DNA of 64,000 bases from Rhodothermales bacterium (lineage in GTDB: Bacteria > Bacteroidota > Rhodothermia > Rhodothermales > JANQRZ01): assembly GCA_965215165.1 (NCBI GenBank), contig CBDCCX010000006.1:2286959-2350958 (forward strand). Direction: 5' to 3'. Made by a program: the position numbers and the translations under genes. Position 1 is the stretch's first letter, and the number at the start of each line of letters is the position of its first letter. The notes under the pieces were generated by a model, which searched no databases, was not told where the DNA came from, and saw only the letters and a list, made by a program, of their open reading frames with translations. Below, piece by piece: positions 11,590 to 64,000 of the stretch.

Positions 11590-11607
11590 CAGAGACGGGG
11601 TGAGAGG

Positions 11608-13257
11608 TTAGCGGACGACGGTGAGGCGCTGCGTCTCGGTGTGCGGGCCGGCCTGGAGGCGGACGAGGTACACACCGGCAGGCAGCCCGGCCAGCGGTAC
11701 CTGCGCGGTGTGGACCCCGGCCGCTTGCCGCTCGTCGGCGAGCACGGCCACGGAGCGGCCGAGCACGTCGAACACGTCGAGCCGGACTGGACTGCCCTCG
11801 GGCACGGCATACGACACGGTCGCGGATGCGCGCGCCGGGTTCGGCCCGACAGTGAGCCTTAGCCCCGGTGCTTCGGGAGCGCTCGCTGTCGCCGTCGTCT
11901 TCCCGGTCGAGAAGACGTAGGCACGGCCGGCGTTGGGCGGGCTGCCCGGCAGGCTCTCCCCGAACGCGCCAACGCCGATTTCGGCGAGGCCGTCGCCGTC
12001 GAGGTCGTCGAGCGCGGCGATCCCGTAGCCGAAGTACTGCACACCATCGGGGTCCGGCACCGGCGGCTCGAGCGTGGCGAGGAGGGTGCCCGTCGAGGAG
12101 AAGAGGTACACGCGGCCGATGAGTGCCATCGGCACGGCGTCCGCGTCCTCGGCGCGGGCGCTCACGATGAGGTCGTCGAGCCCGTCGCCGTCGAGGTCGG
12201 GCACGGCCTCGACAAGCTCGCCGAAGAAGCCGAGGGGCTGCTCGTCGGGCGAGCGGAGCTCGACGGCGACCTCGCCGGTCGCGCCCGAGATCACATAGGC
12301 CCGCCCGAGATAGGTGCCCTGCGTTGGCTCGCCGTTCGCGCCGGTCGCCACGTCCGGCACGCCGTCGCCGGTCACGTCGCCGAGGCCGGCGGCCCAGCGG
12401 CCGAAGAAGCCGAGCGTGACCGCGTTGGGCGAGGCGATGGTGCGGATCGCCGAGCCGTCGGCCCCGCTGACGATGTAGAGGAGGCCGGCCAGGTCACCGG
12501 CGCTGGTGTCGCGGAACGGAGCGCCCACGACGATATCAGGAACGCCGTCTCCGTCCACATCGCCGGCGTCGTCGGAGGTGTAGCCGAAGCCGGCCTCGCG
12601 GAGGGGGCTGGGCGAAGTGATCGTCAGCACGAGCGCGTCGGTCGCGCCGTCGAAGGCGTAGAGCCGGCCAGCTAGGGCTAGCCCGTCCACCGTCTCCCCG
12701 CGCGCGCTCACGCCGACCTCGCCGACGCCGTCGCCGGTGAGGTCGCCGAGGCGTCCGAGGTCGAATCCGAACTCGCCGCCGTCGCTAGGGTTGGGTGAGG
12801 TGAACGAGGCGATCTCCTCGCCCGTGGCCCCGCTCAGGAGATAGACGCGGCCGACGTTTTCGACCCCTCCGACAGTCTCCCGCGAGGCCGGCACGTAGAA
12901 GTCCGGCGTCCCGTCGCCGTCGCGGTCCCCGGCCGGGAGGATGGCGTCGCCGAAGTAGGCGTCGGTCTCGGGGCGAGGCGAGGCGTAGGTGCGGATGAAG
13001 GCACCCGTGGCACCGCTGTAGAGGTGGACTTGGCCGGCGTCGATGACGAGGGGGCCGCCCACCTGCGTGTCCTCGTCCGGTCCCGAGACGGCGACATCGG
13101 AGACGCCGTCTCCGTCGAGGTCGCCGACGCTGGCGAGGGCGATGCCGAAGCCGCCTCCGTCGGCCTCGTCGGGCGAGGCGAAGGTGTAGAGCGGGCCAAG
13201 CTGCGCCTGGACGGTGGCGGCGAACGGGGCAAAGAGCAGGAGGAGGAGCAGGCGCAT
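11608..13257 (-). CDS. FG-GAP (integrin-alpha-like) repeat protein with T9SS CTD (549 aa)
   Basis: Signal peptide. Multiple FG...GDLDGDG.(P/S)D repeats. CTD ...GPNPARASATVSY...LDVFDVLGRSVAVL...AGVYLVRLQAGPHTETQRLTVVR. Confidence 0.85.
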   Translation of the reverse strand: MRLLLLLLFAPFAATVQAQLGPLYTFASPDEADGGGFGIALASVGDLDGDGVSDVAVSGPDEDTQVGGPLVIDAGQVHLYSGATGAFIRTYASPRPETDAYFGDAILPAGDRDGDGTPDFYVPASRETVGGVENVGRVYLLSGATGEEIASFTSPNPSDGGEFGFDLGRLGDLTGDGVGEVGVSARGETVDGLALAGRLYAFDGATDALVLTITSPSPLREAGFGYTSDDAGDVDGDGVPDIVVGAPFRDTSAGDLAGLLYIVSGADGSAIRTIASPNAVTLGFFGRWAAGLGDVTGDGVPDVATGANGEPTQGTYLGRAYVISGATGEVAVELRSPDEQPLGFFGELVEAVPDLDGDGLDDLIVSARAEDADAVPMALIGRVYLFSSTGTLLATLEPPVPDPDGVQYFGYGIAALDDLDGDGLAEIGVGAFGESLPGSPPNAGRAYVFSTGKTTATASAPEAPGLRLTVGPNPARASATVSYAVPEGSPVRLDVFDVLGRSVAVLADERQAAGVHTAQVPLAGLPAGVYLVRLQAGPHTETQRLTVVR

Positions 13258-49386: not shown

Positions 49387-49434
49387 GGGGACGGCCTCAG
49401 TGAGCGCTGAAGGCATAGTTTGTTAGGGTTGCTT

Positions 49435-49578: not shown

Positions 49579-50517
49579 ATGCGCCGACTACTCCTGCTTC
49601 CGCTTCTCTTTCTTCTCGCCCCCACCGCCTTTGCCCAAGATGGGCTTGTCTCCTCTGCGGAGACGAACAAGGCTACCTACGCCTACGGTGAGACCATCCT
49701 GTTCCGCTACACGATCACGAACGTGACCGATGAGCCGGTCCGCTTCGTGATTGGCTGTCCCAACATCCCAGCCAACATCTCCTACGGCCCCCTCCCTGGC
49801 GTCCAGCAGTGCATCACAGCAAAACTCCCGTTCCGTTTTGCGCCGCGCTCGTCCCGGACCTGGGTGTGGGAGATCATCCCCAATGTGTATGGGGTTCCGG
49901 TGTCGAGCGGGAAGCAGACGATCACGGCCGACTTCGGCGGTAGCCTTCTCCCCGCTGCGGCTTCCTTCCAGGCCCCACAGTACCTCGGCGGCCGGCTCCA
50001 GGTGGGCCTCGCCAATGGGGTAGCCCTCGCGGACGTACAAGACGTAGCGCAGGCGCTGAACGCCGTCTTGATCGAGAGAGGCTTCTACAACAGCTACCTC
50101 GTCGAGATTTCGGGGACGACGTTGGAGGACGCGATAGCCAGCTATGAGGACGACCCGCGTTTCCGCTATATCGAGGCTAGCCGCTCCATCTATCCCAACG
50201 GAGGCTCCCCGCCTATCACGACGCCGGACCCCACCTACGGCGAGGCGTCGCTCGACGCCCCCATCCTCACCGCGCCCGGCCCGAACCCGTTCACGACCTC
50301 GACCTCGTTCGCGCTCACCGTTCCGACGGCCGGGCCAGTGCACGTCGAAGTGTACGATCTGCTCGGCCGCCGCGTGGCGACGCTCCACGACGGGCCGCTC
50401 TCGGCTGCCGAGCACCACTTCACGTTCACGGCGCGCACGCTGCCGGCCGGGCTCTACGTCGTCCGCGCCTCGGGCCAGGGCTTCTCCAAAACTCGGCGCG
50501 TCACACTCGCCCGGTGA
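49579..50517 (+). CDS. secreted hypothetical protein with T9SS CTD (312 aa); paralog of 46207..47130
   Basis: MRRLLLLPLLFLLAPTAFAQ; collinear with 46207..47130 (ATYAYGETILFRYTITNVTDEPV...SRTWVW...). A 58-nt stretch in the CTD is identical (50407-50464 = 47020-47077). Confidence 0.75.
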   Translation: MRRLLLLPLLFLLAPTAFAQDGLVSSAETNKATYAYGETILFRYTITNVTDEPVRFVIGCPNIPANISYGPLPGVQQCITAKLPFRFAPRSSRTWVWEIIPNVYGVPVSSGKQTITADFGGSLLPAAASFQAPQYLGGRLQVGLANGVALADVQDVAQALNAVLIERGFYNSYLVEISGTTLEDAIASYEDDPRFRYIEASRSIYPNGGSPPITTPDPTYGEASLDAPILTAPGPNPFTTSTSFALTVPTAGPVHVEVYDLLGRRVATLHDGPLSAAEHHFTFTARTLPAGLYVVRASGQGFSKTRRVTLAR

Positions 50518-51084: not shown

Positions 51085-52095
51085 TCAATGCACCACCGCC
51101 ACGCGGCGCACTGCCTCGGCTCCAGCGTCGCCGCGCAGCCGGAGCAGGTACGGCCCCGCCGGCAGCCCGGCCACTCCGACGGATACGGCGTGCGGCCCGG
51201 CGGCCTGTCGCCCCGCCTCCACCGTGCGGACGCGCCGGCCGAGCAGGTCCACCACCTCCAGCGTCACCGTTTGGGGAGCGTCCAGCACGTACTGCACCGT
51301 CACGGCCTCGTGTGCCGGGTTCGGGAAGACGGCCGTGAAGCCGGACGCAGCAGGGACCGGAGCCTCGCCCTCGCCCGCCACGGGAAACTCGAAGAGGGCC
51401 TCACCGATCTCTTCCTCCCCGACGCGGGCGTACACGAGGGTTTCGGAGAAATCGCCTACTTCCTTGTTTTCTGAACCCACAGCCCCGACCCCGGCGACGG
51501 AGGTGACGGTACCGGACATGTCGCCGAAGACCTTCTCCGTGTCGCCCAGCCCCTCGAAGCCCACGCCGTAGGCCCCGCTGACGCCATAGACACCGGACCC
51601 GAACGCCCCGCAGTCTCGCGCGTCGGGTTCGCTGAACGCCGCGTCGAGGGGGCACGGCACAGCGGAAACGATGAAGGGGAGATAGTCGCTTGCGTGGTAC
51701 AGCTCGAACGAGGGCGTGCCCTGGGCGTCTTCGACGCGGCGCAACACAGCCCGGGCGTCCTCGTCGTAGCGGACCGGGAACGGGGCGTCGCAGACCACGG
51801 TCCCGCTCCCGTCGAAGCCCTCGCGCTCGCAGCGGAGGGCGAGGACGTACGCCTCGCCGTCGATCTCGGTCTCCCCGATAAGCTCCGTCCCGTGCTCGTA
51901 GGGTGGCCCGAACCGGCTGCTTGCCTGATACTGCCAGACGTTCCCGACGGCGAGCGGCGCGTAGCGGTGCCAGTCTGTCGTGTCGGGGCAGACCTCGCCT
52001 TCGCCGACGGACGCCGGGTCGCAGGGCTGGGCGGTGGCGGGGCCGCAGAAGAGGAACAGGAAAAGCGCGGGAGCGAGTCGCATAGCGTCCCTCAT
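51085..52095 (-). CDS. secreted hypothetical protein with T9SS CTD (332-336 aa)
   Basis: Signal peptide (MRDA)MRLAPALFLFLFCGPATAQ. CTD FPNPAHEAVTVQYVL...LEVVDLLGRRVRTV...AGPYLLRLRGDAGAEAVRRVAVVH. Confidence 0.75.
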   Translation of the reverse strand: MRDAMRLAPALFLFLFCGPATAQPCDPASVGEGEVCPDTTDWHRYAPLAVGNVWQYQASSRFGPPYEHGTELIGETEIDGEAYVLALRCEREGFDGSGTVVCDAPFPVRYDEDARAVLRRVEDAQGTPSFELYHASDYLPFIVSAVPCPLDAAFSEPDARDCGAFGSGVYGVSGAYGVGFEGLGDTEKVFGDMSGTVTSVAGVGAVGSENKEVGDFSETLVYARVGEEEIGEALFEFPVAGEGEAPVPAASGFTAVFPNPAHEAVTVQYVLDAPQTVTLEVVDLLGRRVRTVEAGRQAAGPHAVSVGVAGLPAGPYLLRLRGDAGAEAVRRVAVVH

Positions 52096-54469: not shown

Positions 54470-56224
54470 GTGACCCTCAACTGGGATCAAGTCTTTGCGC
54501 TCGTCCAGGCCCAGCTCCGGCTGGACCTGCGGCACCCCAAGACGGGGGCGGCGCGGTCCTCGCGCGTCCTCCTGACGGTGATTTCTTACGGCGTCTCGTC
54601 GCTCCTCCTTGCCCTCTCCCTCAAGTCCCAGGCGGCCGATACCGAGGCCGTCCTCTTCGCCGGGCTGTCGTTCGCCGTCATCCTCGCGGCGTTCGCCGTG
54701 GTGGGGACGTACGACGATCTGATGGGACGGCCTCGCGACCACGCGTGGGCCGTGACGCTGCCCGCCTCCGAGGCGACGCAGTACGTCGCCCGGCTCGTCA
54801 ACGTCGGCCTGTTTGCCGCGCTCGTGGGCGTCTCTACGGCGGGGCCGCTGGCGGCGCTCGTCGGCTGGGCGAGTGGGGTCGGGACCGGTCTGGCGGCGGG
54901 CGGGCTGCTCATCGGCACTGTGCTTGGGACCGTCTTCGCCGTGCTGGCGGCGGTGTGGGGACTGACGCTCGCGCTGCCGCCGCGCGCGCTCAAGCCGGCG
55001 CTCGCAGTCGGGCGGGCCGGTCTCGTGGGGGCGCTCGTGATCGGGTACCAGTGGATCGGGACCCAGGCGGCGCTCTCGGCCGAGGTCCCCTGGTGGCCCG
55101 CCCGATGGATTCTCGACGGCCTCTGGCTCGCCGAGGGCGCTGGGGGCGCGACGGCCGGGATGGCGGTGCTCACCGCTGGCCTCGCGGTCTGCTTCGGCCT
55201 CGCGTTTCCCCGGCGCTACTTCGCGCTCTTCCAACGCGCCGCCGACAGCGAGGCGACTACCACGCGCAGCCGCACACCTCGCCTCGCTCCGAACCGGCTC
55301 GAGCGGCTCGTCGTCCGCACCCCCGAAGCCCGCGCCGCGTTCGGCTTCACCGTGGCGGCCCTCCGGAGCGACCGGCTGGTGCGCGGGCGCGCGTGGCCGT
55401 CGGCCCTGCTGGCGCTGCTCTTCGCCGGCTTCGGCTGGTGGAGCGGCGGGCTGGGCGACCTCTTCGTGTGGGGTGCGGAGCACATCCTGCTGCACTCGGC
55501 CGTGCAGATGCACCTCTCGGTGCTCGTCGTGCTGCTCTTCAGCGCGCAGACCCTCGTGCAGGCCGTCCAGTTCTCGGCGAACGAGCAGGCGGCCTGGCTG
55601 TTCGAGGCGCTTCCGGTGCGGAGCGGACGGGCGTTGCAGGTCGGGGCGCAGGCGGCGCTCGTGGCGCGGGTGCTGGTGCCGCTGCACCTCGCGCTGGCAG
55701 GGCTGCTCGCGCTCTCGGTGCCGCTCGGCCACGCCCTCCTCCACGCCGGGTTCTGGCTCGCGGCGTGCGCGCTCACGACGCGGGTGCAGGCGCTGACGCA
55801 CCGCCGCCCGCCGTTCTCGCAGCGCTCGGACCGCTTCTCGCTGGCCGAGCGCTTCGTCCCGCTCGTCCTCTCGATCCCGGCCGCCATCGGGTTCCTGCTC
55901 CTCCAGACCGTCGCCTTCGCCTCAGTGCCGAGCGCTGCGCTGATGCTCGCCGGACTCGGCGTCGTCCACGCCGCGCTGGGTCAGCTTCCCAGTTTCCAGA
56001 CCGGGCGCGCTCGCCCTCAGCATGGCACCCAGCCTCGTCGCTCGTGCCGAAGGCGGACGCCTAGAGCTGCCCTAGCCGCCTCTCGCCGGCGACTCGTAGC
56101 CGGGTGGGGCCACGCCGCGCTCGAACCCGTACTCCCGCCGGAAGCCCAGCCTCTTGGCAGCCGCCAGGTCCGCACGCGGAATGAGGACGTAGAGTATTGC
56201 CGGCAAGGGTCCGGGGCGGCCTGA
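54470..56224 (+). CDS. polytopic membrane protein, function unknown (584 aa; last about 75 aa look non-genuine)
   Basis: GTG 54470. About 12 hydrophobic segments up to about aa 505. The tail (…RARPQHGTQPRRSCRRRTPRAALAASRRRL…) is Arg-rich and overlaps the convergent gene 56072..56458. Confidence 0.6.
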   Translation: MTLNWDQVFALVQAQLRLDLRHPKTGAARSSRVLLTVISYGVSSLLLALSLKSQAADTEAVLFAGLSFAVILAAFAVVGTYDDLMGRPRDHAWAVTLPASEATQYVARLVNVGLFAALVGVSTAGPLAALVGWASGVGTGLAAGGLLIGTVLGTVFAVLAAVWGLTLALPPRALKPALAVGRAGLVGALVIGYQWIGTQAALSAEVPWWPARWILDGLWLAEGAGGATAGMAVLTAGLAVCFGLAFPRRYFALFQRAADSEATTTRSRTPRLAPNRLERLVVRTPEARAAFGFTVAALRSDRLVRGRAWPSALLALLFAGFGWWSGGLGDLFVWGAEHILLHSAVQMHLSVLVVLLFSAQTLVQAVQFSANEQAAWLFEALPVRSGRALQVGAQAALVARVLVPLHLALAGLLALSVPLGHALLHAGFWLAACALTTRVQALTHRRPPFSQRSDRFSLAERFVPLVLSIPAAIGFLLLQTVAFASVPSAALMLAGLGVVHAALGQLPSFQTGRARPQHGTQPRRSCRRRTPRAALAASRRRLVAGWGHAALEPVLPPEAQPLGSRQVRTRNEDVEYCRQGSGAA

Positions 56225-56458
56225 GTACTGGCACGCTACGTTGCCCTCTTCCTCGAACCGCACGATCCCGACGCCGGCGGCCTCTAATTGATCGCGAACA
56301 CCCGGCACGATGTGCGCACCTGAAACGCCCGTCCGACTGCACCCCACGCTTCGTGTGATCCATACGTGCGTCGGGCCGACATCATCGGACGGTGGCATCA
56401 GAATAGTATAGCCACACCCGGCACCGCAGAGCACCACGAGGAGCAGGAGCGCGCGCAT
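56072..56458 (-). CDS. small lipoprotein (128 aa), function unknown
   Basis: Internal ATG (rc 56456-58): MRALLLLVVLCGAGC (lipobox). Starts 2 nt after the stop codon of 56461..57777. Confidence 0.6.
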   Translation of the reverse strand: MRALLLLVVLCGAGCGYTILMPPSDDVGPTHVWITRSVGCSRTGVSGAHIVPGVRDQLEAAGVGIVRFEEEGNVACQYSGRPGPLPAILYVLIPRADLAAAKRLGFRREYGFERGVAPPGYESPARGG

Positions 56459-56460
56459 CG

Positions 56461-57777
56461 TCACAGGTCCACGCGGACGCCGACGAGGAAGCGGTTGCGG
56501 GCGAGGTCCTCGCGCACGACCGGCTCGTCCAGAAACCCACTTACGTTCTCGATGCTGTACGGCACCACCTCGTCCTCGAACGCCGTGAACGCGTAGGCTA
56601 CGTCGAGCGCGATCCGGTCCAGCGTCTCCAGGCTGAAGCCGAGCGTGTAGGTCGTCCGCAGCCGGTCCAGGTCGATCCCGAGACGGTCGAACTCCTCGCC
56701 GAGCGGGTCGGGCTGGTAGGCGGCCCCGACGCGGACGGCCCACGGGCCGAGGTCGTACTCCGCCCCGAAGCGCGTGTTGAAGACCTCGCTGTAGGCGCGG
56801 CGCAGGTCGAGGTTGCCCTCGGGAAAGTCGTCGCTCGGGCGCAGCCGCGCCTGGGACCAGTCGACGAACTCGATGTCGGCTGCCAGCAGGAGACCGCCGG
56901 CGTCGTAGACCAGACCGCCGGCGAGCCGCCACGGCGTCGTGATCGAATAGTCGAACCCGTCGGCGAAGAGCAGGCCGCCATCGAAGTCGAGGGTCTCAAA
57001 CGACTCCTCAATGCGGAAGTAGGTGGGCGTCTCAGCCGCGAGCCCGAGGCGGACACCGGGCGAGACCTCGGCGACGACGCCCGCGCGGAGGTTTACGCCG
57101 CCCAGCTCCGTCTCGAGGAACCCGATGAACTGGTCGCCGAAGAGCAGGTCGTAGCGGTCGACGAGAGCGCCGCCCCGGTCGAACTCGTCGTAGAACTGCT
57201 CGAACTGGTACGTCCCGCCGACGAGGCTGAGCGAGAGCCCGGCCAGCACACGCGGCGCGACTTCGACCGCCCCGACGACCGACAGCTCCCCGCGCTCGCC
57301 CTCCTCGAACACGTCCCCGAACTGATCGAGGCCGCGTTCGCCGTCGGCCTCCGGGTTGAACCCGACGAACGACAGCTCGCGCTCGAACGAGGCCGTCTGG
57401 TGGTAGCCCGCTCCGAAGACGAGCGCCCCCCGCCGCACCGGCGCGACGGCGACGTAGGCCCCGCTGCCGAGCGTGGCGTGCGTGGCCGTCGCCGAGGTGC
57501 GCTCGCCGAAATAGGTAGCCTCGCTCCGAAGCGAACCCCCGGCGAACGAGCCGACCGCGTGCGTGCGGCCGACCAGGCCCAGTCCCGCTGGATTGGCGAA
57601 AGCGGCCCCCCAGTCGCCGACGCCGCCGACGGACGCTCCGGCTAGGCCTGTCATCCGGGCACCGATGGCGGGGAGGCGCTGGCTGTAGCGGAGCACGTCC
57701 TCGCCCGTCTGCGCGCGCGCCGGAAGCACAGCGAGGACCGTCAGGAGAGCGGCGACGGAGAGGGCACGAGCATTCAT
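56461..57777 (-). CDS. FadL/PorV-like outer-membrane beta-barrel protein (438 aa)
   Basis: Signal peptide MNARALSVAALLTVLAVLPARAQ. N-terminal ...GARMTGLAGASVGGVGDWGAAFANPAGLGL (the GxGGA...D...NPAGL motif of FadL/OMPP1/PorV-type barrels). Alternating beta-strand pattern throughout. Confidence 0.65.
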   Translation of the reverse strand: MNARALSVAALLTVLAVLPARAQTGEDVLRYSQRLPAIGARMTGLAGASVGGVGDWGAAFANPAGLGLVGRTHAVGSFAGGSLRSEATYFGERTSATATHATLGSGAYVAVAPVRRGALVFGAGYHQTASFERELSFVGFNPEADGERGLDQFGDVFEEGERGELSVVGAVEVAPRVLAGLSLSLVGGTYQFEQFYDEFDRGGALVDRYDLLFGDQFIGFLETELGGVNLRAGVVAEVSPGVRLGLAAETPTYFRIEESFETLDFDGGLLFADGFDYSITTPWRLAGGLVYDAGGLLLAADIEFVDWSQARLRPSDDFPEGNLDLRRAYSEVFNTRFGAEYDLGPWAVRVGAAYQPDPLGEEFDRLGIDLDRLRTTYTLGFSLETLDRIALDVAYAFTAFEDEVVPYSIENVSGFLDEPVVREDLARNRFLVGVRVDL

Positions 57778-57876
57778 AGCGTCTGCTGGCTGTGGGAACT
57801 GAACACAGAGGAGGCCCGCACGGGGCGCACGGGCCTCCTCTGATACGTTTGGCTGTCAGGGCTAGGTCAGGGCGTC

Positions 57877-59496
57877 CTACTCGCCCCCACCGCGCCGCGA
57901 GCTGCCGGAGCGGCTCCCGCCTCGGCTCGACGAGCCGCGCGACGAGGAGCCGCTGCGCGAGGAGCCGGCACTGGACCCGCCGGAGCGCGACGGCGGCGAG
58001 CTTGGCCGGGCACTCGGGCGCGGCGACGGCCGCGAGGGCGCGCTGGGCCGGGCGCTCGGGCGACGGCTCGACGAGCCTGACTGAGCACTCGGGCGGCGGC
58101 TGGACGAACCGGAGCGCGCCCCGTCATCGTCCCCTGAGCGGCGCGACGGCTCCGTGCGCGGCGTCCGGCGGGTCGGCGCGCGCTGGGTGCGGGGCGTGCG
58201 GTCCGGCTGGGCGCGCGGTGTCCGTGCCGTGCGGTCGGGCTGGGTGCGAACGGTGCGGTCCGGCTGGACGCGTGTGGTGCGTGGCGTGCGATCCGGTTGC
58301 GTGCTCGGTACGCGCGTCGTGCGCGGCGTGCGGTCGGGCTGAACCCGCGTGGTGCGGTCCGGTTGGGTGCGGACGGTGCGGTCGGGTTGGACGCGCGTGG
58401 TGGCGTCGGGCGTCGTCACGCGCGGCGTGCGAGTCGTGGGCGGTACCGAGGTGTCGCGGACGCGGTCCGTCCTGATGCCCGAGGGGCGGATCGAGGCGGA
58501 AGGCGTGCGCGTCGGAGCCGTCGTGCGGATCGACGTGCTCGTGGTCCCCTGCTGGGCCAGGACGTGCTGCCGCGTCGTATTGCCGAGCGTGCGGATGCTG
58601 CCCACGCCGAGCGGGGCGTCGAGCAGGACGTTGTCGGTGCGCCCATCGGTGTAGGCTGAGAGGGCTTGGCGGCGCGTGCGCCCGGTGCCGAGCGCCGTGC
58701 GGATGCTGCCGCGGGGACGGCGGTCCCGAATCCCGCTGCCGTGGCCGTCTCCGTACCCGCTGTTGTACCCCCCTGCTCCGGCGTAGAAACCGTCGTTGAA
58801 GCCCGCCGCGTAGCTGTTGTGATAGCCACCGCCATAGTAGCCGCCGCCGTAGTAGGACGGACGGTAGCCGTAGTACGGCGCGTAATAGGGATCGTAGTAG
58901 AAGGGGTCGTAGTAGCCCGCGTAGTACGGCGAGCCGAAGTGGACGCCGATGCTAAAGCCCGCGCCGTAGCGGTAGCGGAGGTCGAAGAACGGATCGTAGC
59001 CGTAGGCCCAGGACGGAGCCGGGTAGTAGGGCGAGTAGAAGTGGTGCCAGCGGTAGCGGTTCGGCCGGTAGTACGGCGCGTAGCTGACGAAGTATGGATC
59101 GTAGTAGCGCCCGCCGTAGTAGTCCCCATAGCCGTCGTAGTACGGGTCGTAGTCCTGGTAGACCTCGTCTCTGTAGCGGTAGCGCGTGACGCGGACCGGG
59201 TCGTCGGAACGCGGATCGTCGTACTGTCCCTCCTGGTAGACCTCCTCGCGGTACGCCTCGTCCTCGAAATAGACGGCCTCGTCATAGCCCGCGTCGTAGC
59301 CGAGGCCGAGGCGGGCGGTCTCGCCGCTCCACGTCGGTGCCGCGTCAGGGATCTCTGGAGCGCGCTCGGCCGGGAGGCGGTAGGCATCGGCGCTCGCGGC
59401 GTGGGACGACGGGCCGAGTTGGGTGTAGCAGCTCGAGAGCCCAACGGTGAGGGCGACGAGCGCGAGCGGGACGAGGAGGCGAGAGCGTGTGTTCAT
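57877..59496 (-). CDS. lipoprotein with extreme Tyr-rich, tandem-repeat and Arg/Ser-rich low-complexity regions (539 aa)
   Basis: Internal ATG (rc 59494-96): MNTRSRLLVPLALVALTVGLSSC (lipobox). About 49 Tyr in about 190 residues (…YYDPYFVSYAPYYRPNRYRWHHFYSPYY…YYGGGYYGGGY…). 7 x QPDRT repeats. C-terminal RSGSSSRRPSA…SSRGGSRSGSSRRGGGE. Confidence 0.7.
   Translation of the reverse strand: MNTRSRLLVPLALVALTVGLSSCYTQLGPSSHAASADAYRLPAERAPEIPDAAPTWSGETARLGLGYDAGYDEAVYFEDEAYREEVYQEGQYDDPRSDDPVRVTRYRYRDEVYQDYDPYYDGYGDYYGGRYYDPYFVSYAPYYRPNRYRWHHFYSPYYPAPSWAYGYDPFFDLRYRYGAGFSIGVHFGSPYYAGYYDPFYYDPYYAPYYGYRPSYYGGGYYGGGYHNSYAAGFNDGFYAGAGGYNSGYGDGHGSGIRDRRPRGSIRTALGTGRTRRQALSAYTDGRTDNVLLDAPLGVGSIRTLGNTTRQHVLAQQGTTSTSIRTTAPTRTPSASIRPSGIRTDRVRDTSVPPTTRTPRVTTPDATTRVQPDRTVRTQPDRTTRVQPDRTPRTTRVPSTQPDRTPRTTRVQPDRTVRTQPDRTARTPRAQPDRTPRTQRAPTRRTPRTEPSRRSGDDDGARSGSSSRRPSAQSGSSSRRPSARPSAPSRPSPRPSARPSSPPSRSGGSSAGSSRSGSSSRGSSSRGGSRSGSSRRGGGE
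58170..58400 (-). repeat. in-frame coding tandem repeats (QPDRTxRT units, about 30-nt period)
   Basis: The plus strand shows reiterated gtgcggtc(c/g)gg(c/t)tgg units. Translation on the minus strand: TRVQPDRTVRTQPDRTTRVQPDRTPRTTRVPSTQPDRTPRTTRVQPDRTVRTQPDRTARTPRAQPDRTPRT. Confidence 0.8.
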
Positions 59497-59586
59497 GGTC
59501 AGCCGAGTCGATGGAAGGCGGCGGCGCAGAGCGGTCAGCGGTGTACCGACGGGGCGCTCAGAAGGTCCCCCGCCCGAGCCGGCGCG

Positions 59587-59618
59587 TTGCCGCGATTCGG
59601 CCGGGGAGGGTATATTTG
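59587..59618 (+). promoter_or_regulatory. candidate Bacteroidota-type promoter for proS (TTG-N21-TAtaTTTG)
   Basis: TTG 59587-89, tatatttg 59611-18 (matches the TAnnTTTG -7 element described for Bacteroidetes sigma-A), about 145 nt upstream of ATG 59762. Confidence 0.3.
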
Positions 59619-59761
59619 GCAGCCTCACCCGCAAGCCGCCGCGCCCGATCCGGAAGTAACACGTGCAACAAACGCGCCGACGGCTTCGGCGTGCCCCTCG
59701 CGCCCCGACCGTCCGGGGCGCGCGCCGTTCTCGCCCTCTTTCCGACACGCCCCCGCCCCCT

Positions 59762-61237
59762 ATGGCAGACGCCATCACGCCCCGCTCCCAGGACTACGCG
59801 CAGTGGTATGTCGACGTCGTCCGTGCCGCTGGCCTCGCCGAGTACTCGCCCGTGCGCGGCTCGATGATCATCCCGCCCAACGGCTACGCGCTCTGGGAGA
59901 ACATGCAGCGCGCCCTCGACGCCATGTTCAAGGCGACCGGCCACCGCAACGCCTACTTCCCGCTCTTCATCCCCCAGAGCTTTCTGGCGAAAGAGGCCGC
60001 GCACGTCGAGGGCTTCGCCAAGGAGTGCGCCATCGTCACCCACTACCGCCTCAAGACCGACGACGACGGCACCCTGATCGTAGACCCCGACGCCAAGCTC
60101 GAAGAGCCGCTGATCGTCCGCCCGACCTCGGAGACGATCATCTGGGACGCCTACAGCCGGTGGATCCAGAGCTGGCGCGACCTCCCGATCCTCATCAACC
60201 AGTGGGCCAACGTCGTCCGGTGGGAGATGCGGACGCGGCTCTTCCTCCGCACCGCCGAGTTCCTCTGGCAGGAGGGCCACACCGCCCACGCCACCGAGCC
60301 CGAGGCCGTCGAGGAGGCCCGCCGGATGCTCGACGTCTACGCGACCTTCGCCGAGGAGTGGATGGCGATGCCGGTCATCAAAGGGGCCAAGACCGAGAGC
60401 GAGCGCTTCCCCGGTGCCGTCGACACCTACGCCATCGAGGCGATGATGCAGGACGGCAAGGCCCTCCAGGCCGGGACCTCGCACTTCCTCGGCCAGAACT
60501 TCGCGCGCGCTTTCGACTGCACCTTTACTAACAAGGACAACGTGCAGGAGCACGTCTGGGCCACGAGCTGGGGCGTCTCGACGCGGCTCGTCGGCGGGCT
60601 CGTGATGACGCACGGCGACGACCAGGGCTTGGTCCTCCCGCCGCGCTTGGCTCCGACGCAGGTCGTGATCGTCCCGATCTACCGCGCCAACAAGGAGGAC
60701 GACAAGCGCGCCGTGCTCGACGCCATCGAGGCCATCCGGCGCGAGCTGGACGTGGCCGGCGTCCGGGTCCACGTCGACGCTAGGGAGGAGCAGCGTCCGG
60801 GCTGGAAGTTCAACGAGTACGAGGTGCAGGGCGTCCCGCTCCGCCTCGCCGTCGGCCCGCGCGACGTCCAGAACGGCACCGCCGAGCTCGCCCGCCGCGA
60901 CCGCGACGGCAAAACGTCCGTCCCGCTCGGCACCCTCACCGCCACGGTGACCGACCTGCTCGACGAGATCCAGCGAGGCCTCTTCGCCCAGGCGAAGGAC
61001 CGGCGCGACAGCCGGACGACAAAGGCGGACAGCTACGACGCCTTCAAAGAGGCCATCGACGGCGGCGGGTTCGTGCTCGCCCACTGGGACGGCACGCCCG
61101 AGACCGAGGCCCGGATCAAGGACGAGACCAAGGCCACGATTCGCGTCGTTCCCTTCGAGCGCGACGACGAGCCAGGCGCGGACCTGCTCACCGGCGAGCC
61201 GTCGGAAGGCCGCGTGGTGTTCGCCCGGTCGTACTGA
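59762..61237 (+). CDS. proS: proline--tRNA ligase (archaeal/eukaryote-like short form, 491 aa)
   Basis: Internal ATG 59762: [46 protein letters not shown]...; class II motifs (…[15 protein letters not shown]…, …[11 protein letters not shown]…); C-terminal ...FARSY. Confidence 0.95.
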
Positions 61238-61345
61238 AGTCGTGCTGGGAAGGGACGAGGGGCAGAACGGGGGGCAGAACGAGGAGCCTCCATCCGTATC
61301 GTTACAGCCTATCTCATCTCTTCTCCCTTTCTCCCTCTCACAGAA

Positions 61346-62038
61346 ATGCGATCCGGCAGCGCACCAGCAAACGAGACGCGCCGAACCGCCGCGTACCGGG
61401 CGGCGAACCTGCTGTCGTACCTCATCAACCCGCTCGTGCTACCGCCCGTCGGGTTCGGGCTGATCCTGTGGCACTTCGGTGCGCCGGGGTGGGAGATCGC
61501 GCTCATCTCGGCCATCTCGCTCGTGTTCTTCTGCCTGGTGCCCCTCGCGCACGTCGTGTGGATGATCCGCCGGGGCCAGGCCGACTCGCTGGAGGTGCGG
61601 CGGCAGGATCAGCGCCTGCGGCCGTTTCTGGTTGGGATCGCGTCCTACGTCGTCGGCATCGTCGCGATGGCGCTGGTTGGGACGACGGCGGGGCCGCTCC
61701 TCGTCGCCCTCGCGCTGATCTATCCGGTCAACACGGCGATCCTGCTGCTGGTCAACCTCCGCTGGAAGATCTCGATCCACATGACGAGCCTGGCCGGCTT
61801 CGTCTCGATCCTGCTGTTCGTCTCGCTCACCGTCTGGCGCGACCTCCCGCCGGACACGGAGCTGGCGCTGACGGCGCTGACCGTGACCCCGCTCTTGGTG
61901 CTCGTGCCGCTCTTGATGTGGGCGCGCGTCCGCGTCGGGGCGCACACGCCGGGGCAGGTGGCGGCCGGCGCGCTCTTCGGCCTGGCGATGCCGGCGGCCG
62001 AGCTGTTCGTCATCGTCCGCGTGCTCGGGCTGGTATAG
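61346..62038 (+). CDS. PAP2-superfamily membrane phosphatase-like protein
   Basis: Six TM helices; ...KISIHM... and ...RVRVGAHTPGQVAAG... correspond to PAP2 motifs C2/C3. Confidence 0.65.
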   Translation: MRSGSAPANETRRTAAYRAANLLSYLINPLVLPPVGFGLILWHFGAPGWEIALISAISLVFFCLVPLAHVVWMIRRGQADSLEVRRQDQRLRPFLVGIASYVVGIVAMALVGTTAGPLLVALALIYPVNTAILLLVNLRWKISIHMTSLAGFVSILLFVSLTVWRDLPPDTELALTALTVTPLLVLVPLLMWARVRVGAHTPGQVAAGALFGLAMPAAELFVIVRVLGLV

Positions 62039-62092
62039 CCGGGCGAGTGTAACGAAAGGGTAGAATCGCGTCCCCTTCTCCAGCGGTTTTAA

Positions 62093-62130
62093 GGCAGGGC
62101 AGCATCAGGCCTTATATTTGCCGCCCTGCC
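62093..62130. repeat. 12-bp (1 mismatch) hairpin containing a TATATTTG box
   Basis: ggcagggcagca (62093-104) / tgccgccctgcc (62119-130), with a 14-nt loop. tatatttg sits at 62113-20, about 90 nt upstream of the TonB-receptor ATG. Confidence 0.5.
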
Positions 62131-62210
62131 TCACCAAACCCCCGACGCCGCTGCGACTGGCTACCGTCCGTTCCCGTTCCTCCACTTCCGGTGCCCTGCA
62201 CCCTGACGGT

Positions 62211-64000
62211 ATGCCCCGACTCCTTCGCGCACTCGGCCTCCTCGGCGTCGCCTTTCTGCTGCTCTCGCCCGGCGCGCTCGCCCAAGGCAACGCCGGCCAG
62301 ATCGAGGGCCGCATCACGCAGCGCGGCGTCGGCGGCCCAATCCCCGGCGCGAGCGTCGTCGTCGACGGCACCGCGTTCGGGACGGCGACCGACCCCGACG
62401 GCACGTTCAGCCTCCGCCTCCCGACCGGCGACTGGGTGATCAAGGTCTCCGCGATCGGTTTCCAGGCACAGTCCAGGTCGATGACCGTGAGCAAGGGCCA
62501 GACGGTGCGGCTCGACCTCGCCCTCGAAGAGACCGACATCCAGATGGAGGGCGTCGAGGTGACTGAGGAGTCGGTGGCCGAGGACGCGGGCGTCTACACG
62601 CTCGACCCGCGGACGGCGCAGGACATCCCGAGCCCGCTCAACGACGGCTTGCGGGCGATCAAGGTGCTGCCCGGCGTGACGAGCAACAACGAGACTTCGT
62701 ACCAATACAGTGTGCGCGGCGGCGGCTACAACGAGAACCTGTACTACCTCGACGGCTTCGAGGTCTACACCCCGTTCCGCACCAAGCAGGGCGAGCAGGA
62801 GGGGCTCGGGATCGTCAACCTCGACCTGACCGACCGGCTGACGCTCTACGCCGGCGGCTTCCCGGCGCGCTACGGCGGCAAGCTCTCCTCGGCGCTCGAC
62901 GTGGCCTACAGCCGGCCGGACCGGGACGGCGTTGAGGGCGGGGCCTACGCCTCGACACTCGACGCGGGGGGCCACCTCAAGGTCGGGCTGCTCGGCGGCA
63001 AGCTCGGGATCGCGCTTGCGGGCCGGAGCGCGCGGCCGCAGAGCTTCTTCGGGACGCAGGAGCTCAAGGGCGAGTACGACCCCGAGTTCGCCGACGCCCA
63101 GGGCACGGTCACCTACCGCATCGCCGACGGGCACGAGATCCAAGGCCTCGGGCTCTACCTTAACCACCGCTTCCGCCTGGTCCCGACGAGCCGGCGGACG
63201 TTCTTCGGGACGTTCCAGGACCTGCGCAGCGTCACCTTCGGCTTCAACGGGCTCGAGGAGGACGGCTACACGCTCGGCTTCGGCGGCCTCCGCCTGGTCA
63301 ACCGTCTCTCGTCCAAGCTCCGGGTCGAGCACGACGTGTCGTACTTCGACGTCGAGGAGTACGAGACGCTCGACATCTCCGGGCAGGTCGCCATCTTCGA
63401 CATCCTGAACCCGTTCGAGGACCCGGACGACTCAGAGAACCTGATCCAGACCGGGGCCGCGAGCCAGCGCGACGTGGCCGACAACAACGTCCGCGTCACC
63501 ACGCTCTCCGGCGGCGGGCGCTACCGCCTGAGCGCCGGCCGCCACGCCGCCGAGGCCGGCTGGACCGCCCGCCGCTTCGACTTTAGCGACCGCCTCTTCG
63601 AGGAGAGCACCGTCGCCGGCCGCCAGCAGAACGGCAACCCCGAGCCGGTCGCGCTCGCCAGCATCGACGAGACGAGCGCCTTCAGCGAGGCCCAGTACGG
63701 GGCCTACCTCCAGGACGCCGTGGACGTGTTCCCGCAGCGCGGCCGGCTGATCGTCACCGGCGGGGTACGCGGCGACTACTTCACGTTCAACGACGAGCTC
63801 ACGATCGGCCCGCGCCTCTCGGCCCGCTACGTGTGGGACGAGCTGACGACCGTGACCGCCGCCGCCGGCGTCTACCACCAGGCCCCGACCTACCGCGAGC
63901 TGCGCGGCGAGCCGATCTACGCCGTCTCCAGCGACGACGACCGCGCGGTCACCTTCAACCGCGACATCAAGAGCCAGCGCGCGCTCCAGTTCATCGCCGG
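62211..64000 (+). CDS. TonB-dependent receptor with N-terminal carboxypeptidase-regulatory-like domain (partial; runs off the right edge)
   Basis: Own translation from ATG 62211: MPRLLRALGLLGVAFLLLSPGALAQGNAGQIEGRITQRGVGGPIPGASVVVDGTAFGTATDPDGTFSLRLPTGDWVIKVSAIGFQ... (CarboxypepD_reg), then the plug region ...LRAIKVLPGV...SVRGGGYNENLYYLDGFEVY. Absent from the ORF track because it has no stop in the window. Confidence 0.8.
   Translation, partial: MPRLLRALGLLGVAFLLLSPGALAQGNAGQIEGRITQRGVGGPIPGASVVVDGTAFGTATDPDGTFSLRLPTGDWVIKVSAIGFQAQSRSMTVSKGQTVRLDLALEETDIQMEGVEVTEESVAEDAGVYTLDPRTAQDIPSPLNDGLRAIKVLPGVTSNNETSYQYSVRGGGYNENLYYLDGFEVYTPFRTKQGEQEGLGIVNLDLTDRLTLYAGGFPARYGGKLSSALDVAYSRPDRDGVEGGAYASTLDAGGHLKVGLLGGKLGIALAGRSARPQSFFGTQELKGEYDPEFADAQGTVTYRIADGHEIQGLGLYLNHRFRLVPTSRRTFFGTFQDLRSVTFGFNGLEEDGYTLGFGGLRLVNRLSSKLRVEHDVSYFDVEEYETLDISGQVAIFDILNPFEDPDDSENLIQTGAASQRDVADNNVRVTTLSGGGRYRLSAGRHAAEAGWTARRFDFSDRLFEESTVAGRQQNGNPEPVALASIDETSAFSEAQYGAYLQDAVDVFPQRGRLIVTGGVRGDYFTFNDELTIGPRLSARYVWDELTTVTAAAGVYHQAPTYRELRGEPIYAVSSDDDRAVTFNRDIKSQRALQFIA

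Follow-up and report, generated by a model that had tools for sequence, protein, structure and literature searches.

The gene at 57877-59496 on the reverse strand of the window (the whole 64,000-nucleotide stretch of DNA that was analysed) encodes a tyrosine-rich lipoprotein that belongs to a previously undescribed family spanning the Bacteroidota-Rhodothermota lineage. The members are built as a conserved tri-block polymer: an acidic block at the N-terminus, then a Tyr/Trp/Phe core of ~140 aa whose short motifs are fixed, and lastly a long, basic tail of Ser, Thr and Arg that ends in an Arg cluster. Our tentative reading, to which we give a probability of about 45%, is that the protein acts as a disordered periplasmic partner of the housekeeping FadL-type channel encoded next to it. 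The locus and the protein are made up as follows.

56461-57777, reverse strand: partner outer-membrane barrel of 438 aa with a predicted 14-stranded FadL fold (AF2, Foldseek, profile search)
57778-57876, reverse strand: spacer of 99 nt between the lipoprotein and barrel genes, with no terminator-like site
57877-59496, reverse strand: coding sequence of the Tyr-rich, predicted disordered lipoprotein, 539 aa plus stop by translation (stop codon 57877-57879)
57880-58146, reverse strand: Ser/Arg/Gly/Pro tail (aa 451-539), ending ...PPSRSGGSS...SSRRGGGE
58147-58551, reverse strand: variable Arg/Thr/Pro repeat spacer (aa 316-450), which holds seven QPDRT units
58552-58731, reverse strand: conserved basic module (aa 256-315), seen as invariant alignment columns in the Rhodothermales-type subfamily
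58750-59205, reverse strand: aromatic core (aa 98-249), 36% Y/W/F
59206-59427, reverse strand: acidic N-terminal block (aa 24-97), net charge -11, with CYTQLG and a D-x-YR motif
59428-59496, reverse strand: signal peptide and lipobox (aa 1-23, LSS/C), from the sequence
59762-61237, forward strand: proS, class II prolyl-tRNA synthetase with ProRS-C_1 (Pfam), the divergent neighbour

The frame at 57877-59496 on the reverse strand is a genuine protein-coding gene. GC content by codon position is 0.64/0.64/0.88, and within a region of 72% GC the GC3 value of 0.88 is confined to this frame. The protein matches homologs P0001-P0003 with E values of 1e-70 to 5e-86, its start codon lines up with the homologs' starts at MN(V/A)LSR, and homologs from low-GC genomes have the same protein motifs, architecture and gene neighbours. 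The first-pass annotation had taken the gene to be real and correctly framed, had called for a homolog search and had named conservation of another frame as one finding that would overturn its claim; the GC3 of 88% and the protein-level homologs bear out this frame, and the search led to the undescribed family. Several long ORFs overlap on both strands and the C-terminal half is repetitive, as might be expected of an off-frame or antisense artefact of the GC-rich region or of a decaying, non-functional low-complexity ORF. However, because of the GC3 signal and the motifs shared with low-GC homologs, the long antisense ORFs are GC artefacts and a wrong frame or antisense gene is ruled out, and a protein from the equivalent locus position in Flavobacterium johnsoniae has been seen by mass spectrometry. 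The artefact reading is effectively refuted by conservation already, and we give it next to no weight.

The N-terminus, MNTRSRLLVPLALVALTVGLSS followed by C, has the features by which we recognised signal peptidase II lipoproteins, namely a positive n-region and a hydrophobic h-region that lead up to a lipobox ([LVI][ASTVI][GAS]C) lying in the first ~15-35 residues. The lipobox, L-S-S-C, lies at an identical position in the Rhodothermales homologs, which agrees with the clean lipoprotein start noted at first pass. Among the 69 members on which the family statistics were computed, 53 have a lipobox and 16 lack a match, with a plain signal-peptidase-I signal in at least 10 of the latter. The Bacteroidota lipoprotein export signal (LES), a rule defined in Bacteroidia and Flavobacteriia that may not be the rule in Rhodothermales, was found in 0 of the 53 lipidated members, and the window protein continues after the lipobox as C-YTQLGP, without an acidic residue. 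The lack of a surface-export signal, together with the existence of non-lipidated members, makes a periplasm-facing position at the outer membrane likely for the lipoprotein.

Searched with a profile of Rhodothermales-type sequences alone and clustered at 50%, the family yielded 35 representatives, to which a second, broader profile added 64 clusters; the members come from Hymenobacter and Chondrinema (Cytophagia among the classes), Bacteroidales, Flavobacteriales and Rhodothermales. A Tyr/aromatic core is present in all 69 members (median ~35% Y/W/F), the tri-block pattern of charge and aromatic residues in 67-69 of 69, and the motifs are enriched 14- to 160-fold over shuffles. Annotations of 20 members all read 'hypothetical protein' or 'predicted small secreted protein', a Hymenobacter member (P0069) is annotated as 'YgdI/YgdR family lipoprotein', and we found no account of the family when searching the literature for Bacteroidota lipoproteins that are disordered or rich in tyrosine. 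When the window protein and 10 distant members were scanned against Pfam and NCBIfam, nothing rose above noise, and two lipoprotein profiles matched no PDB sequence. The AF2 model of the window protein (54-sequence alignment) has a mean pLDDT of 44 with the signal-peptide helix (H4-21) as its sole confident helix, a prediction of disorder still compatible with a fold formed on a partner or by oligomerisation. The protein is thus predicted to lack an autonomous fold, and a lipid anchor is predicted for most members. An Lpo-type lipoprotein was rejected on the basis that no segment past the signal peptide forms a domain with a pLDDT of 70 or more, and type IX secretion system (T9SS) cargo on the basis that neither Pfam nor NCBIfam revealed a C-terminal sorting domain (Por_Secre_tail/TIGR04183-like). 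Heavy O-glycosylation via the general Bacteroidota sequon was also rejected, D[ST][AILVMT] being depleted (33 observed versus 72 expected). The genes at 47137-49416 and 51085-52095 carry a T9SS sorting domain, so that the model is detectable in this genome.

The block behind the lipid anchor has a negative net charge in 67 of the 69 members; its CYTQLG motif shows no variation among Rhodothermales homologs, and DDxY[YF] is the counterpart motif in other classes (59 observed versus 1.8 expected). The four compositional zones described in the first-pass annotation are present, as is the reported abundance of ~49 Tyr in ~190 aa: the window protein has 52 Tyr, of which 49 lie in aa 66-248 (183 aa, 26.8%), and the zone delimited earlier (aa 73-225) holds 43 in 153 aa (28%). 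With 27% Tyr against a background of 2.8% among the window's remaining high-GC3 ORFs (binomial P ~3e-33), the composition is indeed extreme for a bacterial envelope protein; per 150 aa it reaches 43 Tyr, whereas every other ORF of the window stays at 15 or fewer. Rich in tyrosine as it is, the zone is not purely low-complexity but carries position-specific motifs common to the phylum, among them YYDP[FY]Y and the segment G-W-S-F-S-I-x-F-G, which is amphipathic and strand-like. YDP[FYW] occurs 134 times (1.7 expected) and in 63 of 69 members, and R[IL]RRF of other members is replaced by RYRW/RWRW in the Rhodothermales lineage of the window. The core motifs of the window protein are VRVTRYRY, YSPYYPAPSWAYGYDPFFD, GFSIGVHFGSPYY, YYDPFYYDPYY and GYxxG(F/Y), and the AF2 pLDDT over the core is 31-38.

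Downstream of the core, the basic module (PRGSIRTALG...TRRQALSAY...VLLDAPLGVGSIR...RQHVLAQ) recurs in P0006 and P0007 and is missing from Bacteroidia-type members. The SIR(T/P) repeats noted previously number four (aa 264, 300, 322 and 335), spaced irregularly by 36, 22 and 13 aa and not as a tandem array, and the first two fall in the part of the module conserved in homologs (PRGS[IV]R[ST]A..., LG[VI].S[IV]R). Seven exact QPDRT units, as counted before, occupy aa 370-434 (nt 58195-58389), but the regular ~10-aa period ascribed to them does not hold: the spacing is 8/8/14/11/8/11 aa (mean 10), and TRF returned periods of 24, 48 and 57 nt. The unit occurs seven times in the window, twice in L004, once each in L007 and L003 and not at all in L001, and other repeats fill the spacer elsewhere (TRVTPS in L007, RTERPAPRP in L004). 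On these copy numbers QPDRT was rejected as a functional motif; the array is a lineage-specific spacer expansion with no functional motif by itself.

The R/S/G/P composition of the terminal tail stands, at a length of 89 aa (aa 451-539) instead of the 80 aa given originally; S (35), R (18), G (15) and P (10) make up 88% of its residues. All 69 family tails carry a positive net charge (median +20), and they run to 94-351 aa with ~11% hydrophobicity; a terminal basic cluster, usually RRR, places at least two R/K in the last six residues in 66 of 69, and a PSRS motif is conserved family-wide (55 observed versus 3.8 expected). The epithet eukaryote-like must be dropped. RS domains are defined by stretches in which Arg and Ser alternate as dipeptides, usually accompanied by an RRM, and are kinase-regulated; the window tail has 15 RS/SR dipeptides in 89 aa, Ser runs dominate and Pfam finds no domain, on which grounds a eukaryote-type RS domain was rejected. 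The tail is homologous to the S/G/R tails of bacterial relatives, and an S/G-rich tail with an Arg end is a family trait (66/69), not a sign of eukaryotic descent.

The original description of the gene was made without key context, the FadL-type barrel downstream and proS upstream. The order proS-lipoprotein-barrel is found in the window and in 10 further loci (L004, L007-L011, L013, L014 and L017, with L012 partial, its protein being identical to that of L011 and its downstream gene cut). Lipoprotein and barrel genes are seen in L001 and L015, which offer no sequence upstream or too little to judge by (in L001, a partial 71-aa ORF), and proS and lipoprotein genes in L016, where the contig ends. 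Divergent proS adjoins the lipoprotein gene in every locus with enough upstream sequence, its start in the window (MADAITP) aligning with those of L004 and L007, and a homologous FadL-fold barrel follows on the same strand wherever downstream sequence exists. The gap between lipoprotein and barrel genes, measured in L001, L004, L007-L011, L013-L015 and L017, is 27-150 nt, and 60-150 nt in all but L017. As a terminator scan found no site in the 99-nt spacer, the two genes are probably one operon. A promoter scan gave one promoter-like site, facing proS, and Rfam searches of 56000-61500 gave sub-threshold chance matches only.

The partner barrel belongs to the FadL/Toluene_X family (PF03349) by its predicted 14-strand fold, its NPA hatch motif and the Pfam matches of its homologs: the window barrel itself scores 24 bits against Toluene_X, under the cut-off of 29.7, and many homologs carry PF03349. 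Its mature N-terminus is conserved as QTxxD(V/A)LRYS, and in its NPAG hatch motif N62-P63 are invariant and A64-G65 nearly so, all four being invariant in a 5-sequence alignment. Whereas PDB sequence searches with single barrel sequences gave no match, the barrel profile matches the P. aeruginosa FadL homologue 3dwo (7.7e-6), 6z34 and CymD. The AF2 model (pLDDT 90.9) retrieves FadL structures as the top Foldseek matches, with a TM score of 0.65 to E. coli FadL. The barrels of the different loci are mutually homologous, that of L008 matching the window barrel at E 8e-29.

A counterpart of the locus may be found in F. johnsoniae, in which Fjoh_4939 is ProRS, Fjoh_4940 a SPII lipoprotein and Fjoh_4941 a FadL homologue (PMC12045153), in an order identical to that of the window. 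We infer Fjoh_4940 to be a family member from synteny only, the gene order being also that of the Flavobacteriales member P0035/L017. Fjoh_4940 was classed as a 'periplasm-facing lipoprotein, function unknown' and detected with ~46 spectral counts in membrane proteomes, and upon depletion of the lipid-transport factor TamL, Fjoh_4940 rose 2.6-fold and Fjoh_4941 5.6-fold (PMC12045153). That report remarks on a possible functional link only, with nothing on composition, disorder or conservation.

If the protein is a disordered partner of the channel, lipoprotein and barrel would be co-transcribed and act as a pair. The conserved N-proximal motif and the aromatic core would bind the barrel or one another, and the strand-like G-W-S-F-S-I-x-F-G segment could add to the barrel edge. 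The hydrophobic-poor basic tail of ~200-300 aa would extend across the peptidoglycan to anionic surfaces of the wall or inner membrane, making the protein a flexible arm of the channel that might pass hydrophobic or lipid cargo onward or couple the channel to envelope lipid homeostasis. Cargo hand-over is speculative, because canonical FadL lets its cargo out laterally, into the outer membrane, and in E. coli works without a periplasmic partner; we know of no obligatory disordered lipoprotein partner of canonical FadL channels. The partner model also gives no account of the conserved proS adjacency. There is precedent for such pairing, in that the FadL-type barrel BamG grips the N-terminus of the lipoprotein BamH (PMC12578637, PMC12611786). 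Rather improbably, the protein could also be a sticker-and-spacer disordered polymer that forms an aromatic, gel- or condensate-like phase where the FadL-type channel opens to the periplasm, with the tail tied to the wall or inner membrane. If true, it would be a hydrophobic bridge for fatty-acid and lipid traffic across the Bacteroidota periplasm and the first phylum-wide bacterial envelope component of this kind, and the proS pairing would reflect shared housekeeping regulation.

Other readings place the function outside the channel. The protein might be a structural tether or spacer of the envelope, a disordered stand-in for the Braun-lipoprotein or Pal-type links, whose basic Ser/Arg tail binds anionic peptidoglycan or inner-membrane lipid, with the barrel as a mere anchor and no relevant transport. 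The uniformly positive, hydrophobic-poor tails with their Arg ends, the predicted periplasmic orientation and the housekeeping-like conservation of the locus would all suit such a role, and outer-membrane lipoproteins with a long disordered reach through the wall (LpoB, LpoP) are an established type. We nevertheless consider a tether unlikely: Pfam recognised no OmpA_C, LysM or SPOR peptidoglycan-binding domain in the family, the terminal Lys of Lpp cross-links to peptidoglycan whereas a terminal Arg chemically cannot, and the conserved aromatic core and the FadL-fold partner with its intact NPAG are left unaccounted for. More doubtful still is a role at the cell surface, as an adhesive, matrix, phase-separating or mineral-binding protein that is exported via the adjacent barrel and uses Tyr for adhesion or cross-linking; the first-pass annotation had likened the composition to that of phase-separating, adhesive or mineral-binding proteins. 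Mussel-foot-like or dityrosine cross-linked adhesives, whose Tyr is turned into DOPA or cross-linked by an oxidase of their own, would be matched in composition only. Its 27% Tyr, G/Y/D/P motifs and basic S/R tail do resemble sticker-rich adhesive and condensate proteins, and FadL-type barrels (PorV, BamG) hold surface proteins in this phylum (PMC12578637). Against it stand the absence of the acidic export signal from all 53 lipidated members, the 16 of 69 members without a lipobox match and the periplasm-facing class of Fjoh_4940. Moreover, no Pfam match, T9SS C-terminal domain model included, was found in the 11 proteins scanned, and no tyrosinase or peroxidase gene adjoins, nor did the 16 kb examined contain an oxidase gene. 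The locus is conserved in housekeeping style across Bacteroidales, Hymenobacter, Chondrinema, Flavobacteriales and Rhodothermales, organisms of very different habitats, which argues for a core envelope role over that of an adhesin tied to one niche.

An accessory BAM pair akin to BamG2/BamH2, in which the barrel would bind BamA and the lipoprotein replace or supplement BamH, would fit a FadL homologue (BamG) that binds a lipoprotein N-terminus and the operon-encoded BamG2/H2 (PMC12578637). Foldseek also retrieves BamG chains (TM 0.56-0.62), the mature N-terminus of the barrel is highly conserved as reported for BamG, and Bacteroidota BamA has a Tyr/Gly/Asn-rich loop of unknown role. We hold this to be very improbable. 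BamG identity of the barrel was rejected, since the TM score to E. coli FadL is 0.65 versus 0.56-0.62 to Bt, Fj and Pg BamG, with 14-16% identity to both, and since the barrel profile matches the Pseudomonas FadL homologue and none of the PDB BamG chains. BamH identity was likewise rejected: profiles A2 (E up to 1) and A4 (E up to 10) matched no PDB BamH chain of the BAM complexes 9HJ3/9HIV, 9N2D and 9HJM, and AF2 predicted no fold, whereas BamH carries an export signal and folds into a crescent exposed on the surface. In their accessible portions, neither of the BAM pull-down studies names a protein of this kind among the subunits.

Bacteroidota outer membranes are built and organised unlike the E. 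coli model, and FadL-type barrels partner lipoproteins there (BamG-BamH, PorV), as recent work has shown; the window pair would be a third FadL-barrel/lipoprotein pair, conserved from Rhodothermales to Bacteroidales. The Tyr content of its lipoprotein is among the highest seen in a bacterial protein, and the charge-block design must have been kept for very long. Because the pair, placed by synteny as Fjoh_4940/4941, is expressed in the tractable F. johnsoniae, where it responds to a lipid-homeostasis defect, the role of a disordered periplasmic protein beside a hydrophobic-compound channel is directly testable. Diagnostic motifs and synteny further define a new family for genes labelled 'hypothetical' or mislabelled 'YgdI/YgdR lipoprotein'.

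Compared with known systems, the window barrel shares its fold and NPA(G) hatch motif with E. coli FadL, TodX and CymD, but these channels work alone and the window barrel has the distinct N-terminus QTxxD(A/V)LRYS. LpoB and LpoP, in which an outer-membrane lipid anchor precedes a long disordered linker that probably spans the peptidoglycan, resemble the window protein up to that point; they end in a folded, PBP-activating domain, whereas the window protein is predicted to have none and ends in an Arg cluster. FUS-like Tyr 'sticker' domains and eukaryotic RS domains are akin to it in composition, which features aromatic stickers of G/S-Y-G/S-like and YDPxY type and a basic tail rich in Ser and Arg. 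By contrast with them, the window protein is extracytoplasmic, shows no homology, has few RS/SR dipeptides for its tail length and keeps its motifs position-fixed phylum-wide. BamG-BamH likewise combine a 14-stranded FadL-fold barrel with a dedicated lipoprotein, BamG2/H2 being encoded together as the window pair is, and both pairs are restricted to the FCB lineage; BamH differs from the window protein in fold, surface exposure, export signal and sequence, and the window barrel stands at least as close to E. coli FadL as to BamG. In Bacteroidota BamA, extracellular loop 3 is another flexible, functionally unexplained Tyr/Gly/Asn-rich segment of this envelope, a 38-residue loop within a surface barrel whose likeness to the window protein is one of composition.

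The tyrosine-rich lipoprotein that the first-pass annotation had singled out in the window was confirmed, with its counts slightly corrected. The gene lies between a downstream outer-membrane protein gene and the divergent prolyl-tRNA synthetase gene proS:

56461-57777, minus strand: gene for a 438-aa outer-membrane protein (the barrel), 99 nt downstream of the lipoprotein gene
57877-59496, minus strand: Tyr-rich lipoprotein CDS, 539 aa; N-terminus MNTRSRLLVPLALVALTVGLSS, then cleavage before C
59497-59761: proS/lipoprotein spacer, 265 nt, ~72% GC, its one AT-rich patch being AAATATA at ~59610-59616
59762, plus strand: true start of proS, divergent from the lipoprotein gene
61346-62038, plus strand: PAP2-like membrane protein, beyond proS
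62064-63998, plus strand: CarboxypepD_reg/Plug TonB-dependent receptor, beyond proS

That the gene is real, and in the frame originally proposed, is borne out by GC contents of 0.64/0.64/0.88 by codon position in this frame only and by its being kept in homologs. Long ORFs on the opposite strand and in the other frames at 57877-59496 are the expected product of a region of 72% GC, and an artefactual lipoprotein ORF is extremely improbable. The protein contains 77 R, 62 S, 58 G, 55 P, 52 Y and 50 T residues, and the Tyr-rich zone was essentially as described, with 49 of the 52 tyrosines within aa 66-248 (183 aa, 26.8%). The Tyr background in the window's other high-GC3 ORFs is 2.8% (binomial P ~3e-33 for the lipoprotein zone), and the densest 150-aa stretch holds 43 Tyr versus at most 15 in any other ORF of the window. 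Seven exact QPDRT units are indeed present (aa 370-434), but they do not follow the even period attributed to them, being spaced by 8, 8, 14, 11, 8 and 11 aa; Tandem Repeats Finder returned overlapping periods of 24, 48 and 57 nt for this region. The supposed SIR(T/P) tandem repeats are four irregularly spaced elements that form no tandem array, and the Ser/Arg tail exists (88% S/R/G/P) but measures 89 aa (aa 451-539) instead of 80.

The window lipoprotein represents, in Rhodothermales, an undescribed family of envelope proteins that spans the phylum and is paired with a dedicated barrel. A word-indexed search with the protein recovered three metagenomic homologs (E 5e-86 to 1e-70), and scanning genomes turned up five loci from Rhodothermales MAGs. 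Close homologs are well conserved over aa 1-315 (58% identity) and far more variable in the C-terminal half, with CYTQLG, VxVTRY, YAPYY, YSPYYPAPxWAYxxDPxFD, GSPY, YYGY and PRGSxRxA...RQHVLA invariant. When 1.84 billion representatives were searched exhaustively with a profile, 35 proteins matched, the distant ones being lipoproteins of low-GC genomes with DDxYY near the N-terminus, a core of the form NNYY..DDYYDY.Y..R(I/L)RRF..P....YYDP(F/Y)YTN.YWY...WG(V)SIY.GY.W...YDPFY...GY..GYYDGYY...YGPRGS, and long, polar tails terminating in GGRRR, PRR, SRPR or RRGN. Searching again with a profile of 19 sequences yielded 64 clusters, whose sources include Hymenobacter lucidus, H. cellulosivorans, H. 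saemangeumensis and Chondrinema litorale as well as Cyclobacteriaceae, Sphingobacteriales, Draconibacterium, Mariniphaga and Bacteroidales; one Flavobacteriales MAG also supplied a member. All named members are annotated as hypothetical, one being mislabelled as a YgdI/YgdR lipoprotein. No Pfam or NCBIfam model matched any member tested (the window protein and 10 distant members), and no PDB chain matched the family profiles. One homolog (P0001, 413 aa, locus L002) ends early, lacks the Ser/Arg tail and has no downstream barrel gene called; because contig coverage is only 2.7x, the probable cause is a frameshift in the assembly, rather than genuine truncation.

Block organisation and motifs in the 69 family members of at least 340 aa (expected counts from shuffled sequences)
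Peak Tyr share in any 150-aa stretch: 12-33%
Peak aromatic share in any 150-aa stretch: 23-41%
Aromatic core: median 139 aa, 35% Y/W/F, charge near neutral
Block preceding the core: net acidic in 67/69, median -8
Block following the core: net basic in 69/69, median +20; 28% S/T, 15% R/K, 11% hydrophobic
Last six residues with at least two R/K: 66/69
YDP[FYW]: 134 observed, 1.7 expected
D[DE].Y[YF]: 59 observed, 1.8 expected
R[IL].R[FY]: 32 observed, 0.2 expected
PSRS: 55 observed, 3.8 expected

The excess of YDP[FYW], D[DE].Y[YF] and R[IL].R[FY] over shuffled sequences argues that the Tyr zone is more than mere low complexity. The tail, previously called eukaryote-like, proved to be a shared bacterial family trait, and in the window protein its 89 aa include just 15 RS/SR dipeptides. 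QPDRT occurs seven times in the window versus twice at L004, once each at L007 and L003 and not at all at L001 (all fetched homologous loci), where the spacers bear other repeats (e.g. RTERPAPRP, TRVTPS, TRPAP); the spacer repeats, QPDRT included, are lineage-specific. Despite their Ser/Thr-rich tails, the 69 members contain fewer copies of the general Bacteroidota O-glycosylation sequon D[ST][AILVMT] than do shuffled sequences (33 vs 72 +/- 8), because Asp and Ser/Thr segregate into different blocks. A conserved alternating aromatic/small segment of the aligned core (e.g. GFSIGVHFG, GWSFSMSFG, WGVSIYLGY) seems patterned like an amphipathic beta-strand. AlphaFold2, run on the window lipoprotein with a 54-sequence alignment, gave a mean pLDDT of 44 (core 31-38) with the signal-peptide helix as the sole element, and the protein is therefore predicted to lack an autonomous fold, which would leave room for folding upon partner binding or self-assembly.

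In the fetched loci, synteny of the family with proS and a FadL-fold barrel is strict, and the divergent pairing with proS is kept from Rhodothermales to Bacteroidales. The arrangement of the window recurs in Rhodothermales (L004, L007), in a low-GC metagenomic locus (L008), in Hymenobacter cellulosivorans CP095049 (L009) and Chondrinema litorale CP111043 (L010), in L011 (and in L012 as far as its sequence runs), in a Bacteroidales MAG (L013), in L014 and in a Flavobacteriales MAG (L017). Lipoprotein and barrel genes are likewise paired at L015 and at L001, where the upstream ORF is partial, and L016 carries proS and the lipoprotein gene before the contig ends. At L014, which has the full synteny, the barrel homolog P0195 is labelled 'Thiohalospira sp.', a gammaproteobacterium, in NCBI; mis-binning of a Bacteroidota contig is the likeliest explanation. 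No terminator-like site was found in the 99-nt gap between the lipoprotein and barrel genes. The only sigma-70-like match in the spacer (59587-59616, plus strand) faces proS, and the spacer may be common to both divergent genes.

The proS genes of L004 and L007 are flanked by the same PAP2-like and TonB-dependent receptor genes as in the window, and that of L016 by a TonB-dependent receptor and an unannotated 230-aa ORF, so conservation within the order extends to a wider block. Downstream of the barrel gene, and adjoining it, a small ORF (56072-56500, minus strand) starts with MRALLLLVVLCGAGC, a lipoprotein-like signal; it had no Pfam or NCBIfam match, nor an equivalent after the barrel among the ORFs listed for L004 and L007 (cut-offs 120 and 200 aa). 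Convergent with the barrel gene, an ORF of 584 aa (54470-56224, plus strand) is located within a stretch whose AT skew is strongly negative (-0.3 to -0.4) and has no Pfam match; L007 has a 593-aa ORF (11159-12940, minus strand) at the equivalent convergent position. Three genes (47137-49416, minus; 49579-50517, plus; 51085-52095, minus) encode the type IX secretion C-terminal sorting domain Por_Secre_tail, one with FG-GAP repeats and one with a fervidolysin-like prodomain, which implies a T9SS in the source organism, as expected in Rhodothermales.

The partner is a FadL-family barrel, not specifically BamG. The downstream barrels are mutually homologous (window vs L008: 24% identity, E 8e-29), and many homologs are assigned PF03349 and named FadL or long-chain fatty-acid transport proteins, the window barrel itself scoring slightly below the Pfam Toluene_X threshold. 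Against the PDB, the barrel profile matched the Pseudomonas FadL homologue 3dwo (7.7e-6) and CymD, and no BamG or PorV chain. With the AlphaFold model (pLDDT 90.9), Foldseek ranked E. coli FadL first (TM 0.65), while BamG of B. thetaiotaomicron, F. johnsoniae and P. gingivalis gave TM 0.56-0.62. Among the homologs, the hatch motif NPAG shows little or no variation and the sequence at the mature N-terminus, QTxxD(A/V)LRYS, hardly any.

In Bacteroidota surface lipoproteins, two or more acidic residues lie no more than about six positions from the lipidated Cys (criterion of PMC12578637). None of the 53 lipidated family members follows this rule, which was defined in Bacteroidia and Flavobacteriia. 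A further 16 of the 69 members have no lipobox match; a few of these reflect misplaced starts or an unmatched Cys, and at least 10 (P0052, P0064, P0071, P0074, P0080, P0083, P0086, P0088, P0093 and P0094) have an ordinary signal peptide ending in ...AQ, with DDxYY almost directly after the predicted cleavage, so that lipidation is dispensable for the family. The missing export signal and the existence of non-lipidated members favour a periplasmic location over the cell surface, and the surface adhesive or mineral-binding protein that the composition had originally suggested is unlikely.

We tentatively propose (probability about 0.45) that the lipoprotein serves a housekeeping FadL-type channel as its disordered arm in the periplasm, in a role connected with hydrophobic cargo or lipid homeostasis. 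The two genes would be co-transcribed and their products would form a physical pair, with the lipoprotein facing the periplasm and docking through its N-proximal motif or aromatic core while the basic tail extends to the wall or inner membrane. A purely tethering or spacing function is distinctly less probable, and an accessory role of the pair in BAM, notwithstanding the BamG similarity of the barrel model, is improbable, below even the adhesive reading; the remaining probability falls to some role yet to be conceived. The window lipoprotein is genuine and no isolated compositional curiosity, and is of greater interest than the first-pass annotation could see.

A Flavobacterium johnsoniae counterpart may already have been detected. 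In a study of TamL (PMC12045153), Fjoh_4939 is proline-tRNA ligase, Fjoh_4941 a FadL homologue and Fjoh_4940 an SPII 'periplasm-facing lipoprotein, function unknown', with ~46 spectral counts on average, comparable with that table's value for BamG (Fjoh_1412). TamL depletion raised Fjoh_4940 2.6-fold and Fjoh_4941 5.6-fold, and the authors' sole remark on the two is that their proximity 'might indicate a functional link'; no other paper in the literature searched mentions either. Because the gene order is identical and a Flavobacteriales member occurs at L017, we infer that Fjoh_4940 belongs to the family. Two 2025 studies (PMC12578637, PMC12611786) show a FadL-type barrel, BamG, in the Bacteroidota BAM complex; BamG grips BamH, a surface lipoprotein, by its conserved N-terminus, and the genes for a pair of paralogues, BamG2 and BamH2, lie together. 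The flexible, Tyr/Gly/Asn-rich extracellular loop 3 of Bacteroidota BamA (PMC12578637) resembles the GYxxGYYDGYY part of the family core (window 58750-59205) in composition. Membership tests for BamG/BamH identity of our barrel and lipoprotein failed. BamG-BamH is the nearest mechanistic precedent for the pair: the protein family and its barrel pairing are new, and the theme of a FadL-type barrel with a lipoprotein is already known.
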